The notes beneath the pieces were generated by a model. That model was not told where the DNA came from, made no database searches, and saw only the letters and a list, made by a program, of their open reading frames with translations. 11,043 nucleotides of DNA from a virus, in the UHGV virus genome UHGV-0098765, one strand, 5' to 3'. Position 1 is the first letter of the stretch. The number at the start of each line of letters is the position of its first letter. Both the position numbers and the translations under genes were made by a program. This document shows, piece after piece, positions 1,126-11,043 of the stretch.

Positions 1126-1155
1126 AAAACCCGCCTTCAGGCGGGTTTTTTCTTT
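1126..1155. terminator. Bidirectional Rho-independent terminator
   Basis: AAAACCCGCC-ttca-GGCGGGTTTT followed by TTTTTTCTTT on plus; on minus the same stem is followed by UUUUCAAAA. Sits between the converging plus small ORF (stop 1106) and the minus xis-like gene (stop 1154). Confidence 0.75.
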
Positions 1156-1435
1156 AGTGATGTTCTTTGCCCTTCTGTTTGACTGTTCTGACCTGTTCCC
1201 ACTCGATACGTCCTTCTTCTCGCCTTTTGTCTATGTATTCCGCAAGATCCTGAATATTGATGCAACGTTTTGCTTTTTGTGATGTGCCGATGCGATATGT
1301 TGGAACGGGCAACTTACAAGCGTTTGCTTTTGCTTCTGCCGTGGCTGGACTCATACCAAAGTACTTTTGGCTAATTGCTGAGAGTTCAATGTTTGGGGTA
1401 TTGAATTCAGCCATCAGTAAAAACAAGGTGTTCAT
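1154..1435 (-). CDS. Excisionase-like / recombination directionality factor-like DNA-binding protein
   Basis: ORF 1154..1462; the listed start at 1462 is a GTG. Preferred start is ATG 1435 (MNTLFLL...), preceded by GGAG with 6-nt spacing. Small basic protein at the end of the early-left operon, recognised by family resemblance from memory rather than a specific motif. Confidence 0.6.
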   Translation of the reverse strand: MNTLFLLMAEFNTPNIELSAISQKYFGMSPATAEAKANACKLPVPTYRIGTSQKAKRCINIQDLAEYIDKRREEGRIEWEQVRTVKQKGKEHH

Positions 1436-1471
1436 AATTTTCTCCATCAAAACCGGCTGCACCCGGGAAAA

Positions 1472-6662: not shown

Positions 6663-7355
6663 TTAATTGTGTCGCTTAAGGGTTTGTGACTGACTGATTA
6701 AGACCTTTCCAAAGACCATAAACCGGTGTTCGTTTTCGCTGGTAATTCCCCATTCGCGGTAAATCTGATTATCAGAAATTACCAGCAGTTTATCAGGTAT
6801 CATTTGCAGTCGTTTGACGTAAATTTTATCATCAAAACCAAATACATATATACCATCCCCATCAAACTGATTGATACTGATATCAACGAAGATAAGATCT
6901 CCTGGCTCAATGGTTGGACACATACTGTCCCCACGAACGTTGATAACTTTAATGTGATTTGCTGGTCGTCCACCAAACATCGATACAGCATTATCAGTTC
7001 TGTATTCAATGGCATGAATCACATCAATGACATCACCGCCCTGGATAAGGCCATTTCCCGCACTGGCACTGACATCCAGCATTTCAATACGGAATACATC
7101 CTTCACCTGCGCAACATCCTCACTAATACTGTTTTTACATACAGTATTACTTTTGAGGTCTGAGGTAAAGAGATCAGCAATATCAACACCTAAGCTCCTG
7201 GCAATATTACTCAGGGCTTGTTCAGTGAATTGTTTCTGCTTACCTGTTTCGAGGCGCGAGATATTCGCCGCATCCACTCCTATTGCTTCAGCGAGATCGG
7301 CGATTTTCATGTTCTTCGCCTGGCGAAGTTGTCTGACTCGATTTCCTATGTTCAT
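6663..7355 (-). CDS. CI-like prophage repressor (N-terminal XRE-type HTH, C-terminal S24 LexA-like peptidase domain; 230 aa)
   Basis: HTH region RVRQLRQAKNMKIADLAEAIGVDAANISRLETGK; candidate Ala-Gly cleavage site (SASAGNG); catalytic Ser in GDSMCPTI and Lys in KRL. Divergent from the cro-like gene; apparently leaderless, with -10 TGTAAT 6 nt before the ATG. Confidence 0.9.
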   Translation of the reverse strand: MNIGNRVRQLRQAKNMKIADLAEAIGVDAANISRLETGKQKQFTEQALSNIARSLGVDIADLFTSDLKSNTVCKNSISEDVAQVKDVFRIEMLDVSASAGNGLIQGGDVIDVIHAIEYRTDNAVSMFGGRPANHIKVINVRGDSMCPTIEPGDLIFVDISINQFDGDGIYVFGFDDKIYVKRLQMIPDKLLVISDNQIYREWGITSENEHRFMVFGKVLISQSQTLKRHN

Positions 7356-7452: not shown

Positions 7453-7713
7453 ATGCAATCACCATTACGGAATGTGCGTAAGGCGCACGGATTTACTTTG
7501 CAGCATGTTGCTGCTGGCGTTCAGGTCAATCCAGCGACGCTGAGTCGTATTGAAAGACTGGAACAAATTCCATCTATCGATCTTGCAGAACGTCTGGCCA
7601 ATTTTTTTAAGGGTGAAATCAGCGAAATGCAGATTCTTTATCCGGCACGTTTTCAATCTAGCCAAAACCAGAATGGGTTTAAACCACAGGAACAGGAGGT
7701 AAGCCGTGGGTAA
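7453..7713 (+). CDS. Cro-like HTH transcriptional regulator (86 aa)
   Basis: GGAGG RBS; XRE-type HTH (AHGFTLQHVAAGVQVNPATLSRIER); divergent from the repressor gene across the operator region. Confidence 0.8.
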   Translation: MQSPLRNVRKAHGFTLQHVAAGVQVNPATLSRIERLEQIPSIDLAERLANFFKGEISEMQILYPARFQSSQNQNGFKPQEQEVSRG

Positions 7714-8257
7714 GCATCATTGGAAAGTGGAAAAACAACCTGAGTGGTACGTGAAAGCTGTCAGAAAAACTATCGCGGCATTGCCTGGGGGTTACGCTGA
7801 AGCTGCTGACTGGTTGGATGTAACAGAGAACGCTTTATTCAACCGCCTTCGTGCAGATGGCGATCAGATTTTCCCGTTGGGATGGGCAATGGTTTTACAG
7901 CGTGCTGCTGGCAATCACCACATTGCGGATGCTGTCGCACAGTCTGCTGGTGGGGTGTTTGTATCACTTCCTGAAATTGAGGAAGTAGAGAACGCCGATA
8001 TCAACCAGCGCCTGCTGGAGGTCATTGAACAGATCGGCAGTTATTCAAAACAGATTCGTTCAGCAATTGAAGACGGGGTGGTGGAACCACACGAGCAGGC
8101 AGCAATTAACGACGAGCTGTACATGTCAATTTCGAAGCTGCAGGAGCATGCAGCACTGGTCTACAAAATCTTTTGCGCTCCAGAAAAGAGTGACGCCCGC
8201 GAGTGTGCAGCTCCGGGCGCCGTGGCGTTTTGTGTCTGTGGAGAAACTAACGCATGA
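7706..8257 (+). CDS. Putative CII-like phage regulatory protein (183 aa), function hedged
   Basis: GTG start at 7706 with AGGAGG 6 nt upstream, overlapping the cro-like stop by 8 nt. Position immediately after cro. No specific motif verified. Confidence 0.55.
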   Translation: MGKHHWKVEKQPEWYVKAVRKTIAALPGGYAEAADWLDVTENALFNRLRADGDQIFPLGWAMVLQRAAGNHHIADAVAQSAGGVFVSLPEIEEVENADINQRLLEVIEQIGSYSKQIRSAIEDGVVEPHEQAAINDELYMSISKLQEHAALVYKIFCAPEKSDARECAAPGAVAFCVCGETNA

Positions 8258-9405
8258 ACAGTTTAACGGCAAATAACCGTTTGTCGCAACAGCTGGTGGT
8301 CAGCGTGGCTGAACACCTGTTGTTACGGCATGAATGCAGATTACCAAATCACCTGGCTGTAAGTAACCACAGAGAACTTTACCTGACTGTGGGGGGCGAG
8401 TTGTGCAGGAACTTAACCGCTGGTTTCGTGACGGAAGAGGGCTTTATGTCCATGTTATTCGTTGGGAGCCAGAAACACAGCGCGTTATCTATCTTCGCAA
8501 AGACTACCCGCATGAGTGCTTTAGTCCTTTGTGGAAATTCAGGCGTGATTTTGTTGAGTGTGAAGGACCACCAACACATTGATTCTGCCATTCCGGGACG
8601 TTACACTATTCAGGCACCTTATAAAACGGGTGCCGGGCGTGGAAACCCGGAATTCACCAAAGCGCACAACCGCGCTCTTGCGGTTTTTTTGTGTCATGAG
8701 CAGCATTACGCCCAAATTATGGTGGGGCGTGCAGGGCCAACTTCGGTTGGGCCGGGTTCTTTGGTGACCGGTATTTCCACCCCTGTACGTCTCACCACCA
8801 ATAAGGTCGTGGAAAGCCTTGGTGGTGAGTTATTAAAAATCACCAAAGAGGCTGCCATCATGGCTACGATCCCAACCCTCACTCAACCTGAAATTGCCAT
8901 CGTTGATGGTCAGGCTGTTACTTCATCCCTGGCTGTTGCCAACTTCTTCTCCAAACGTCATGACGATGTACTGAAAAAGATCCGCACGCTTGAATGCTCA
9001 GCATCATTCACTGCCCGCAATTTTTCGGTGAGTGATTACACTGATTGCACAGGTCGCAAACTTCCTTGCTACCAAATCACACGCGACGGTTTTGCGTTTC
9101 TTGCTATGGGTTTCACGGGTAAACGTGCTGCCCAGTTCAAAGAGGCATATATCAATGCCTTTAACCAGATGGAGAAACAGCTTTCAAAGCCCTATGTACC
9201 GAGCGACGTTGCACATAACGCCAGCGTTCTCTGTTCCTACATTTCATCAATTCATCAGGTCTGGCTGCAGCAGCTTTATCCTATGTTGGCAAAAGCCGAA
9301 TCTCCGCTGGCTGTTAGCTTATATGACTATATTAATGATGCTTCGGCGCTGGCCTGCCTCATAAATTTGTCGCTGAACCCTTCAGAGGTAAGGGGGCGCA
9401 AATGA
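8254..9405 (+). CDS. Rha-family phage regulatory protein (Rha domain in the C-terminal half); alternative start at ATG 8840 gives a 188-aa canonical Rha protein
   Basis: ATG 8254 overlaps the CII-like stop (ATGA) with a GGAGAAA RBS, and the frame stays open for 383 codons. The recognisable Rha domain (VDGQAVTSSLAVANFFSKRHDDVLKKIR...YQITRDGFAFLAMGFTGKRAAQFKEAYINAFNQMEKQL) begins only after ATG 8840, which has its own AAAGAGG RBS. A terminator-like hairpin with a T7 run (8648-8670) lies inside the N-terminal part. Confidence 0.45.
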   Translation: MNSLTANNRLSQQLVVSVAEHLLLRHECRLPNHLAVSNHRELYLTVGGELCRNLTAGFVTEEGFMSMLFVGSQKHSALSIFAKTTRMSALVLCGNSGVILLSVKDHQHIDSAIPGRYTIQAPYKTGAGRGNPEFTKAHNRALAVFLCHEQHYAQIMVGRAGPTSVGPGSLVTGISTPVRLTTNKVVESLGGELLKITKEAAIMATIPTLTQPEIAIVDGQAVTSSLAVANFFSKRHDDVLKKIRTLECSASFTARNFSVSDYTDCTGRKLPCYQITRDGFAFLAMGFTGKRAAQFKEAYINAFNQMEKQLSKPYVPSDVAHNASVLCSYISSIHQVWLQQLYPMLAKAESPLAVSLYDYINDASALACLINLSLNPSEVRGRK

Positions 9406-9626
9406 TCCGGAATATTTTCAAACGGTTTACCAATCAGACCTTCCGTTGTCCTCGTCCGGGTCAGTGGTACACCACGCCTGCAGGGCATGTTCTACGTGTT
9501 AGCCTGGTTGACCGTGAATGTCAGAAAGTGATTTGTGAACCGCTGGGCCGTAATTACCGCGTCAGTATGCCGCTTATAGCATTTCGCTCTGGAAAAAACA
9601 TGAAGCATCTCGGAGGTGCAGCATGA
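9402..9626 (+). CDS. Hypothetical small Cys-containing protein (74 aa)
   Basis: ATGA overlaps at both ends (9402-9405 and 9623-9626), consistent with translational coupling inside the replication operon. Confidence 0.5.
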   Translation: MIRNIFKRFTNQTFRCPRPGQWYTTPAGHVLRVSLVDRECQKVICEPLGRNYRVSMPLIAFRSGKNMKHLGGAA

Positions 9627-10441
9627 GTATGGAGCTGATGGTTAAAGCGATGAAAATTCGAGTGGGTAATCCATTGCGAAAACTGGTTCTGATCAAGCTG
9701 GCTGATAATGCCAGCGATCAGGGTGAGTGCTGGCCCAGCTACCAGCATATTGCTGACCAGTGCGAGATTAGCAAACGTTCTGTGATGAATCATATTGCGG
9801 CCCTTTGTGATTCCGGGCTGGTAAAAAAAGTCACCCGGAAAGGTGAAAAAGGTAACTCAAGTAATATCTATCTCCTTCATCTTGATGGTGCAGGAGATTC
9901 ACTAGGGGGTAGTGCAAATGATTCACTATCTGGTGCAGCAAATTCACCAGGTAGTGCAGGAGTTGCACCAGGGGGTGGTGCAGGAGATTCACCCAGAACC
10001 AGTCACTCTTTTGAACCAGTCAATGAACCAGTCAATGAACCAATAGCTGTTGGTGCATCTGCTGATGAGTCTGTGCGAGTTCGTTCAAACCGACCGGAAT
10101 ACTCTCCGGAGTTTGAGCAGGCATGGCTGGCATATCCCAAACGTGCTGGTGGCAATTCAAAATCAGCGGCCTTCAAAGCCTGGAAAGCCCGTTTGAACGA
10201 GGGGGTAAACCCCGAAACCATGCTGGAAGGTGTGAAACGCTACGCGGGCTGGGTATCTGCGATGGGCAATAGCGGCACACAATTTGTGAAACAGGCTGTC
10301 ACGTTCTTTGGTCCGGATCGTCATTTCGAAGAATCCTGGGAAGTTCCTGCGGTATCTGCAGCTAGACGTGAGGACCCGTACTTCAAAGCCAGTTACGACA
10401 ACGTGGACTACAGCCAGATCCCGGCAGGATTCAGGGGGTGA
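9623..10441 (+). CDS. Replication initiator, lambda O-like organisation (N-terminal winged-helix DNA-binding domain, internal iterons, C-terminal domain; 272 aa)
   Basis: GGAGG RBS 6 nt upstream. N-terminus (LRKLVLIKLADNASDQGECWPSYQHIADQCEISKRSVMNHIAALCDSGLV) is replication-protein HTH-like. A low-complexity linker (GAGDSLGGSANDSLSGAANSPGSAGVAPGGGAGDSP) is encoded by a direct-repeat array. Confidence 0.75.
   Translation: MSMELMVKAMKIRVGNPLRKLVLIKLADNASDQGECWPSYQHIADQCEISKRSVMNHIAALCDSGLVKKVTRKGEKGNSSNIYLLHLDGAGDSLGGSANDSLSGAANSPGSAGVAPGGGAGDSPRTSHSFEPVNEPVNEPIAVGASADESVRVRSNRPEYSPEFEQAWLAYPKRAGGNSKSAAFKAWKARLNEGVNPETMLEGVKRYAGWVSAMGNSGTQFVKQAVTFFGPDRHFEESWEVPAVSAARREDPYFKASYDNVDYSQIPAGFRG
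9887..10036. repeat. Iteron array (putative prophage replication origin) inside the O-like gene
   Basis: Five direct repeats of a 16-bp unit RGTGCA-N6-TKCAC at 9887, 9911, 9932, 9953 and 9977 (spacing 21-24 bp), each with inverted GTG/CAC ends. Followed by tandem 12-bp GAACCAGTCAAT x2.6 at 10013-10044. Confidence 0.7.
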
Positions 10442-10443
10442 TC

Positions 10444-10932
10444 ATGAGTCTTTTGAATGAAGTTCAGAAATTCATTGAAGCCCATCCGGGGTGTACTTCC
10501 GGAGACATTGCGGATGCTTTTGCAGGTTACTCACGACAGCGCGTTCTGCAGTCAGCAAGCAAGTTACGTCAGAGTGGGCGTGTGGCTCACCGTTGTGAAG
10601 GAGATACACGCAGACATTTCCCACACCTGACTGAGAGAGCGCAGGAACCGGAACCACAACCAGTTCGTGAAACCAGACCTGTGCGCAATTTCTATGTCGG
10701 CACTAACGATCCCCGGGTGATTTTGTGCCTGACCCGCCAGGCGGAAGAACTGGAGTCCAGGGGCTTATACCGTCGTGCTGCAACGGTGTGGATGGCGGCA
10801 TTCCGTGAAAGCCACTCCCAGCCAGAACGAAACAATTTTCTGGCGCGTCGTGAGCAGTGTTTACGGAAAAGCAGCAAGCGCGCTGCATCGGGTGAAGAGT
10901 GGTATCTGTCAGGGAATTACGTGGGGGCTTAA
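10444..10932 (+). CDS. PerC-family-like transcriptional regulator (162 aa from ATG 10444; ORF track starts at GTG 10438)
   Basis: AGGGGG 5 nt before ATG 10444; overlaps the O-like stop. C-terminal segment AEELESRGLYRRAATVWMAAFRESH...REQCLRKS resembles the PerC/Pch family motif as I remember it. Confidence 0.55.
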   Translation: MSLLNEVQKFIEAHPGCTSGDIADAFAGYSRQRVLQSASKLRQSGRVAHRCEGDTRRHFPHLTERAQEPEPQPVRETRPVRNFYVGTNDPRVILCLTRQAEELESRGLYRRAATVWMAAFRESHSQPERNNFLARREQCLRKSSKRAASGEEWYLSGNYVGA

Positions 10933-11043
10933 TGAGTAATAAATATTGCCAGGCGCTGGTGGAACTGCGGAACAAACCAGCCCATGAACTGAAGGAAGTG
11001 GGCGATCAGTGGCGCACGCCGGATAACATTTTCTGGGGAATTA
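10932..11043 (+). CDS. Putative phage DNA N6-adenine methyltransferase (Dam-like), 5' fragment truncated by the window end
   Basis: ATG 10932 overlaps the upstream stop (TAATG). N-terminus MSNKYCQALVELRNKPAHELKEVGDQWRTPDNIFWGI carries the W-x-TP-x-x-IF motif I associate with phage Dam N-termini. Confidence 0.4.
   Translation, partial: MSNKYCQALVELRNKPAHELKEVGDQWRTPDNIFWGI

Follow-up and report, generated by a model that had tools for sequence, protein, structure and literature searches.

The groups into which PerC-like regulators are divided were reportedly defined by Porter et al. in 2005. Within this family, activation of LEE1 and relief of H-NS silencing have been shown for PerC and the group 1 Pch proteins only (PMC4764244, PMC6265319). 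It has been demonstrated that Pch counters the silencing exerted by H-NS, StpA, Hha and YdgT at LEE1 (PMC4764244), and that ler is activated exclusively by the group 1 members PchA/B/C, little effect being observed for PchD and PchE (PMC6265319, PMC5931665). The ANR proteins, built of three helices, bind directly to H-NS, Ler and AraC-type regulators (PMC4983702, PMC10148876) and carry the signature A-x3-E-x7-A-x3-W-x2-A...R-x3-C (PMC4983702). As to YfdN-type proteins, a search of the literature returned no experiment devoted to them, only indirect mentions connected with a reporter strain, a glycogen screen and a filamentation region. In the first, YfdN was referred to as "the K12 unique PerC homologue" and was removed to clean up the reporter strain (PMC5931665). 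In the second, overexpression of yfdN in an ASKA screen changed glycogen accumulation (PMC2853380). In the third, overexpression of a homologous five-gene region of UTI89 that includes yfdN2 led to filamentation, an effect that was not localised to one gene (PMC6206680).

Small phage methylases related to the one described below have been characterised in more than one phage. M.EcoVT2Dam targets GATC (PMC6602927); the same sequence is methylated, and DpnII blocked, by M.Phi93DAM, a small NPPY-only Dam from a lactococcal 936 phage (PMC4190342). Here we describe positions 10444-11043 of an 11,043-nt stretch of viral DNA (UHGV virus genome UHGV-0098765; the whole stretch is called the window), where an earlier note, made from the letters of the DNA, had placed a PerC-like regulator and an orphan Dam-like methyltransferase in a replication module.

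Organization of the locus

Both gene calls of the earlier note and their coordinates proved accurate when compared with the ORF list and the sequence (Table 1). The placement in a replication module is borne out by the upstream neighbour, a replication initiator that matches HTH_36 (43.5 bits) and DnaD_N (23.2 bits) in Pfam and phrog_270, "replication initiation protein", in PHROGs (E 1.4e-88), and whose orthologues in SfV and mEp460 are annotated as replication protein. A gap of 2 nt separates this gene from the yfdN-like gene. An alternative GTG start at 10438 is used for the latter by some RefSeq records. The ATG at 10444 is the conserved start, since MS(L/I) opens the aligned homologues down to 24% identity, and a Shine-Dalgarno-like AGGGGG run ends 6 nt 5' of it.

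Table 1. Features of the locus (positions in the window)
Feature	Position	Strand	Remarks
Replication initiator gene	9623..10441	+	272 aa; HTH_36 N-terminus, DnaD-like C-terminus
yfdN-like gene	10444..10932	+	162 aa plus TAA stop at 10930-10932; ORF list
N-terminal winged-helix domain	10444..10623	+	Residues 1-60; AlphaFold2, Foldseek
Linker	10624..10710	+	Residues 61-89; length and sequence variable
PerC/ANR-like three-helix domain	10711..10872	+	Residues 90-143; AlphaFold2, Pfam PerC
TAATG stop/start overlap	10930..10934	+	yfdN-like gene coupled to next gene; read from sequence
Phage N-6-adenine-methyltransferase gene, first 37 codons	10932..11043	+	PF05869/TIGR01712; gene cut off by window end

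Start and stop codons in the ORF list abut or overlap throughout 8254-10932, and a promoter scan of 9300-11043 found no sigma-70-like promoter; the genes of 8254-10932 form one operon. Two regulatory genes lie upstream of it, a divergent one for a cI-like repressor (6663-7355, - strand) and a cro-like one (7453-7713, + strand). In the SfV record a dam promoter is annotated separately within the yfdN homologue, so the methylase might also be expressed independently of the operon. In the window the corresponding -35/-10 elements read TGGCGC/TACGGA, a weak pair that was not adopted as a promoter for that reason. No Rfam family was matched within 10444-11043.

The yfdN-like gene and its distribution

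The assignment of the protein as PerC-like withstood a profile search: PF06069 (PerC) scored 37.0 bits (E 4.1e-9; cutoff 22.6), the match being confined to residues 98-149. The whole protein matches phrog_1324, "transcriptional activator" (E 5e-78), and is 96-98% identical to RefSeq clusters named "yfdN: PerC family transcriptional regulator". At the DNA level, mEp460, Stx2a and Stx2c phages and many E. coli chromosomes share ~98% identity with 9400-11043. SfV holds orthologous genes, with a PerC domain 95.9% identical in protein sequence, and the cryptic prophage CPS-53 of K-12 carries the decayed trio yfdO-yfdN-yfdM. A match to 9400-11043 is present in 2758 of the 5426 complete E. coli genomes, at least 80% of the stretch being covered in 838 of them. 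The yfdN-like gene and the methylase are hence an ordinary, very common and already annotated E. coli prophage pair which in itself matters little, being routinely annotated and present in about half of the complete genomes.

Two other functions were considered for YfdN. No PADLOC model that would indicate a defence role matched it. The idea that it stands in for lambda P was discarded, since one lineage has a lambda-P-like gene directly 5' of yfdN.

A winged helix joined to a PerC/ANR-like domain

A PDB sequence search gave no usable solved structure for the yfdN-like protein or the methylase. A homologue search of 1.84 billion representative proteins yielded 103 relatives, about sixteen of which are full-length, keep both halves and share 24-47% identity with the query, and an AlphaFold2 model was built on the homologue alignment. 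The model has a mean pLDDT of 80 and comprises two confident domains. The N-terminal one is predicted to contain helices at residues 3-13, 19-25 and 31-44 followed by a beta hairpin at 47-60 (pLDDT 85-91). Foldseek likens it to the winged helices of ArsR/SmtB, BlaI/MecI and MarR proteins, with an rmsd of 1.5-2.8 A over ~60 residues, and weak MarR, BilQ and Penicillinase_R profile matches fall at the same place. In the C-terminal domain, helices are predicted at 90-105, 109-122 and 126-143 (pLDDT 91-95). The core of the linker between them, residues 64-79, has a pLDDT below 50 and is predicted to be disordered, and the linker is also the most gapped and least conserved part of the homologue alignment. 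All 24 aligned YfdN-type homologues match the PerC profile, and the two-domain layout is conserved down to 24% identity. YfdN-type proteins are, in short, a distinct two-domain subfamily in which a winged helix precedes a PerC/ANR-like bundle.

The alignment of PerC (89 aa), PchA (104 aa) and PchE (90 aa) with the yfdN-like protein is confined to residues 94-162 of the latter, and A100, L103, E104, G107, R110, R111, A112, A113, W116, R129 and C139 are invariant among the four. The protein is not one of the small single-domain (~90-104 aa) PerC/Pch LEE activators. The C-terminal domain is also reminiscent of ANR proteins. The NCBIfam model NF033650 (ANR_neg_reg) scores 22.6 bits on the window protein (E 7e-5), below its cutoff of 32; sub-threshold matches are likewise obtained for K-12 YfdN, PerC, PchA and PchE, and E values of 0.01 or lower are reached by 18 of the 24 YfdN-type homologues, the best being 6.2e-9. 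These sub-threshold scores point to remote homology rather than to ANR membership, and it would appear that one three-helix domain is common to the PerC and ANR families. Such a link would connect two lines of research into proteins that modulate H-NS and AraC-type regulators.

The earlier note had also proposed regulatory cross-talk from prophage to host, as in the activation of LEE, and this part is not supported. It is very improbable that the PerC-like protein switches on ler/LEE or other virulence genes of the host, even though it shares a Pfam family and an invariant core with PerC, PchA and PchE. It is true that the gene is carried by Stx2a and Stx2c phages and by an O157:H7 chromosome, and thus occurs in some LEE-positive strains, and that, like group 1 pch genes, it would be expressed on SOS induction (PMC5931665). 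However, ler activation is limited to group 1 Pch and is not a property of PchD or PchE (PMC6265319, PMC5931665), and the two-domain window protein shares just 37% identity with PerC across 46 residues and has an extra winged helix. The genomes nearest to the window come from seawater, sewage, poultry, swine and human isolates as well as from O157:H7 and Stx2 phages, so possession of the gene is not confined to LEE-bearing strains; the E. coli genomes that hold it include K-12. Moreover, a yfdN-type gene occupies the same fixed early-operon position in Kosakonia and Citrobacter, and relatives are named from Salmonella and Hafnia. This constant position, together with the wide spread, argues for a role intrinsic to the phage. 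The name "PerC family" alone is no ground for reading YfdN-type proteins as LEE activators.

An orphan methylase of the PF05869 family

The open reading frame that starts at 10932 runs for 37 codons (MSNKYCQALVELRNKPAHELKEVGDQWRTPDNIFWGI) before the window ends. These 37 aa match the first 22-24 profile positions, PF05869 at 16.9 bits (E 0.005, cutoff 28.1) and TIGR01712 at 29.4 bits (E 4.9e-7, cutoff 97); truncation to this length keeps both scores under the curated cutoffs. The orthologue in mEp460, by comparison, has 217 aa and reaches 256 bits with TIGR01712 and 156 bits with PF05869. Window and mEp460 differ at 9 positions in a 644-nt alignment across both genes. The NPPY motif occupies residues 86-89 of the mEp460 orthologue, which places it past the end of the window. 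At E <= 0.01, PF05869 was the only Pfam family matched by the full-length orthologue, with no match to D12 (PF02086). What the earlier note called a "Dam-like methyltransferase" is in this way confirmed as a methyltransferase through its full-length orthologues, while the likeness to Dam does not extend to its D12 class. A homology search found relatives of the window-type methylase in other phages of the 936 group. M.EcoMIV of ST131 was considered as a further family member and set aside, since it is a D12-class enzyme.

The description of the gene as an orphan also stands. At the orthologous loci of mEp460, SfV and two E. coli chromosomes, its neighbours are yfdN and a gene for a LexA-like DNA-binding domain, with RusA following the latter; no nuclease gene adjoins the methylase. 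PADLOC reported methylase models only. The window contains 38 GATC sites, against 39.8 +/- 6.1 expected. The motif is neither depleted nor enriched, and a count at expectation gives no hint about the target of the methylase.

Since the window stops at codon 37, it may be asked whether the gene, like yfdM of K-12, has decayed to a truncated or inactive form devoid of activity, yfdM being a 91-codon remnant with the same beginning. Truncation does occur elsewhere, as an 89-aa form is found in two E. coli genomes of the GTDB set (L103, L105) and a split methylase in one IMG/VR locus (L083). Nevertheless, this possibility is unlikely here. The repressor, cro, Rha and full 272-aa replication genes upstream in the window are intact and collinear with those of the functional phage mEp460, whereas yfdO of K-12 is cut down. 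Furthermore, the methylase is full length in 56 of the 57 methylase-bearing IMG/VR loci, one of these copies being an in-frame fusion with yfdN. Judged by this collinearity and these counts, the methylase gene probably continues intact beyond the window.

A slot for exchangeable methylases

Gene order was compared in 13 lineages picked by hand and in 80 IMG/VR loci, which were selected by a near-identical LexA-like gene and are redundant E. coli prophages, all of E. coli type, so that the counts are descriptive and not statistical. The yfdN-type gene lies directly 3' of a replication-initiator gene in every one of the 13 hand-sampled lineages. Further downstream, most lineages have the gene with the LexA DNA-binding domain, and RusA comes next wherever the contig reaches that far. 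Between these flanks, a DNA methylase follows yfdN immediately in 11 of the 13, usually with overlapping stop and start codons, and its type varies. It is a PF05869 enzyme in the window type of E. coli, MT-A70 in six lineages (P0160, P0161, P0162, P0166, P0169 and P0172) and D12 in one (P0164). In one Kosakonia lineage (L109) a 611-aa ORF with a D12 C-terminus takes the place, in P0147 a 1075-aa fusion of a C5-methylase, a PAPS-reductase-like part and D12, and in a second Kosakonia lineage (L110) a 731-aa ORF related to the N-terminal half of the P0147 fusion. No methylase follows yfdN in the remaining two (P0130 and P0175).

A similar picture emerges among the 80 IMG/VR loci. The complete order Rep > YfdN > PF05869 > LexA-like > RusA is found in 54; in one the methylase is present but yfdN is broken into two parts (L086), another has an in-frame YfdN-methylase fusion (L043), and in a third the methylase itself is split (L083). 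The methylase is missing from about a quarter of these close relatives, namely from 21 complete loci and from one that is cut upstream of yfdN; 2 are too short to judge. In the methylase-less loci that were inspected, the LexA-like gene follows yfdN immediately across the same TAATG. Since the methylase is absent or replaced while yfdN stays constant, it behaves as an optional and exchangeable cassette, and phages use the slot behind yfdN as a hotspot for swapping DNA-methylase cassettes. This slot is a handy marker for locating phage methylases. It may also explain why small methylases carry the mislabel "phosphoadenosine phosphosulfate reductase" in RefSeq phage records.

The recurrence of methylases at this place raises the question of whether the YfdN-type protein and the downstream methylase work as a functional pair, YfdN exerting expression control in the manner of a controller (C) protein or serving as a reader of methylated DNA or a targeting factor. 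Such a partnership would explain the repeated recruitment of unrelated methylases (PF05869, MT-A70, D12 and the C5+PAPS+D12 fusions) to a coupled slot in enterobacterial phages. It would fit with the natural in-frame fusions of both proteins, which besides L043 include P0020 and P0021, and with a weak FaeA/PapI-like match in one YfdN-type homologue, PapI being a protein that acts at Dam sites. Yet the partnership, even as a looser functional link, is quite improbable. The methylase-less loci counted above, together with the two distant lineages, keep yfdN, which speaks for a methylase-independent function of YfdN, and the optional nature of the methylase argues against an obligatory association. 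In addition, conserved flanks around a swappable middle are already the usual pattern of lambdoid mosaicism, no backbone of the same type lacking yfdN was found that could serve as a control, and the 13 lineages were hand-picked. The reading favoured here is a constant YfdN-type gene next to an optional methylase cassette.

Proposed roles

Taken together, the region is quite probably the middle of the early-right operon of an SfV/mEp460-like E. coli prophage, encoding a YfdN-type regulator and, coupled to it, an orphan m6A methylase that forms an optional cassette. By analogy with the folds that it resembles, the N-terminal winged helix probably binds DNA, and the flexible linker would tie it to the C-terminal PerC/ANR-like three-helix domain. 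The latter may act on nucleoid proteins such as H-NS or on other regulators, as Pch does at promoters and ANR proteins do by protein contact. The most likely role of a YfdN-type protein, judged by these analogies, is that of a phage-intrinsic delayed-early regulator of transcription or an anti-silencer, produced once the phage has been induced or has infected a cell. A dedicated role as LEE activator is less likely.

Through the TAATG overlap, translation of the methylase would be coupled to that of the yfdN-like gene. The enzyme itself is predicted to be an orphan phage m6A methylase of the small NPPY-type PF05869 family that probably acts on replicating phage DNA. Its most likely target, by analogy with the characterised PF05869 members, is GATC. 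Placed in a repressor-controlled early operon, the methylase would be made in lytic growth, during the replication of phage DNA. Methylation could plausibly shield the progeny from methylation-sensitive restriction or keep fast-replicating DNA fully methylated, a proposal that draws on what is known of phage orphan methylases and on M.Phi93DAM (PMC4190342). In a lysogen of ST131, prophage methylases are poorly transcribed (PMC4659465). The methylome of a lysogen, named in the earlier note as a check, is a weak test, because the operon is repressor-controlled and host Dam, which already methylates GATC, would hide such a specificity.

Comparison with known systems

K-12 YfdN (b2357, in CPS-53/KpLE1), SfV orf40, mEp460 gp44 and the corresponding gene of Stx2a and Stx2c phages are the same gene as that of the window. 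They are equal to it in length and are likewise preceded by a replication gene and followed by a methylase. The K-12 copy differs in belonging to a decayed prophage, with truncated yfdO and yfdM as neighbours, and otherwise in nothing substantial. To these known genes, the two-domain nature of YfdN, the link to ANR proteins and the methylase-swap slot are modest additions.

With PerC, encoded on pEAF/pMAR2 of EPEC, and with PchA/B/C, PchD and PchE of EHEC O157:H7, the window protein shares PF06069, horizontal acquisition and the core A-x2-LE-x2-G-x2-RRAA-x2-W...R...C. The gene for PchE also lies in the replication region of a phage (Sp7), where it follows those for primase and SSB. The main difference lies in architecture, PerC and Pch being single-domain proteins of 89-104 aa and the window protein having 162 aa, with an added 60-residue winged helix and a linker. 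PchD and PchE are nearer to PerC in this respect than the window protein is, and yet they have little effect on LEE (PMC6265319, PMC4764244, PMC5931665). As for the ANR proteins (Aar of EAEC, Rnr of EPEC and C. rodentium), their signature fits the PerC core and they too consist of a small three-helix domain. They are, however, single-domain anti-activators encoded beside AraC-family regulators, whereas the window gene sits in a phage early operon.

Regarding the methylase, a characterised enzyme for comparison is M.EcoVT2Dam (VT2-Sakai orf32), which like the window type belongs to PF05869 (218 bits), carries NPPY and is an orphan. Both genes lie in the delayed-early region between the replication genes and Q, that of M.EcoVT2Dam being flanked there by ninB and ninE and not by yfdN and a LexA-like gene as in the window type. 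The two proteins are only 31% identical over 143 residues, so GATC specificity is not assured for the window type, which has 217 aa and a C-terminal extension, against 175 aa for M.EcoVT2Dam. E. coli Dam belongs to a different family, D12 (PF02086). It is an m6A DNA methyltransferase as well, and its target, GATC, is also the likely one of the window-type enzyme.

Possible relationship between PerC and ANR domains

As judged from their sequences, the PerC and ANR (AraC negative regulator) families look like a single three-helix superfamily. Below its threshold, the NCBIfam ANR model picks up PerC, PchA, PchE and K-12 YfdN, as well as 18 of the 24 YfdN-type homologues. In addition, the PerC core agrees with the published ANR signature. 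No statement of this superfamily link was found in the literature examined.

Overexpression of a UTI89 prophage fragment spanning C5098-C5102 and including "yfdN2" leads to filamentation, an effect assigned in an expression-library screen to the fragment and not to a single gene (PMC6206680). The UTI89 region 4,997,073-4,999,597 is homologous to roughly positions 8250-11043 of the window, and annotation notes in the mEp460 record tie neighbouring genes to UTI89_C5094 and C5103.

Methylases and the LexA-like gene downstream of yfdN

The small methylase carries the name "phosphoadenosine phosphosulfate reductase" in the RefSeq records of phages mEp460 and SfV, a designation that looks like a wrong annotation transfer. 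Its source is probably phrog_33262, a profile of 495 positions of which the methylase covers positions 283-492 only. In some lineages, among them P0147 and two Kosakonia loci, a large multi-domain methylase ORF lies directly 3' of the yfdN-type gene; that of P0147 is a natural fusion that includes a PAPS-reductase-like domain.

The next gene past this variable methylase slot, which in relatives lies downstream of the window end, encodes in mEp460 a 108-aa protein consisting of a LexA DNA-binding domain alone (PF01726, 69 bits), without the S24 peptidase domain. This LexA-domain gene was found in most lineages examined. Produced from the early operon of the phage, a LexA mimic could act as a competitor for SOS boxes.

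Location of the features discussed
Feature	Location	Strand	Remark
Region with sub-threshold ANR match, yfdN-type gene	window 10711-10872		ANR profile match
Region with sub-threshold ANR match, PerC locus	L005:18487-18753		ANR profile match
Region with sub-threshold ANR match, PchA locus	L007:3769-4080	-	ANR profile match
Region with sub-threshold ANR match, PchE locus	L008:41772-42041		ANR profile match
Small methylase, mEp460 gp45	L001:5533-6186		
Small methylase, SfV dam	L003:2722-3375		
LexA-domain gene, mEp460	L001:6183-6509		
Methylase fusion, P0147 lineage	L011:997-4221		1075 aa; C5 cytosine methylase + PAPS-reductase-like domain + D12 adenine methylase (Dam)
Kosakonia ORF	L109:3917-5749		611 aa; domains partly assigned
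Kosakonia ORF	L110:1531-3723		731 aa; domains partly assigned
Excisionase-like PrtN-family gene	window 1154-1462	-	
Rha-family ORF	window 8254-9405	+	383 aa
isrK Hfq-binding RNA	window 8614-8690	+	Rfam 67.9 bits (gathering score 50)
C4 antisense RNA	window 8715-8802	+	Rfam 83.6 bits (gathering score 45)
ORF between Rha-like and replication genes	window 9402-9626	+	74 aa; phrog_1153

Left end, small ORF and RNA elements

In the RefSeq annotation of the closest genome (strain fS58a), a partial tRNA-dihydrouridine synthase CDS lacking its C-terminus corresponds to window positions 1 to ~56; therefore, the window may begin at a boundary of a prophage that has integrated into this gene. No integrase is present within the window. 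The 74-aa ORF matches phrog_1153, a group of unknown function, over its full length (E 1.3e-45) and has no match in Pfam or NCBIfam; in distant relatives, its place is taken by a DUF4222 gene.

Both the isrK and the C4 RNAs fall inside the 383-aa ORF, to which RefSeq gives the single name "Rha family phage regulatory protein". A Pfam Phage_ASH match (aa 117-213) overlies the two RNAs, and the Phage_pRha match begins at aa 223. This CDS may represent an RNA leader of the P1/P7 c4 type or the Gifsy-1 IsrK type fused with a shorter antirepressor ORF, the latter starting perhaps at MATIPTL near 8863. SfV orf37, at 837 nt, is shorter than the 383-aa ORF of the window.
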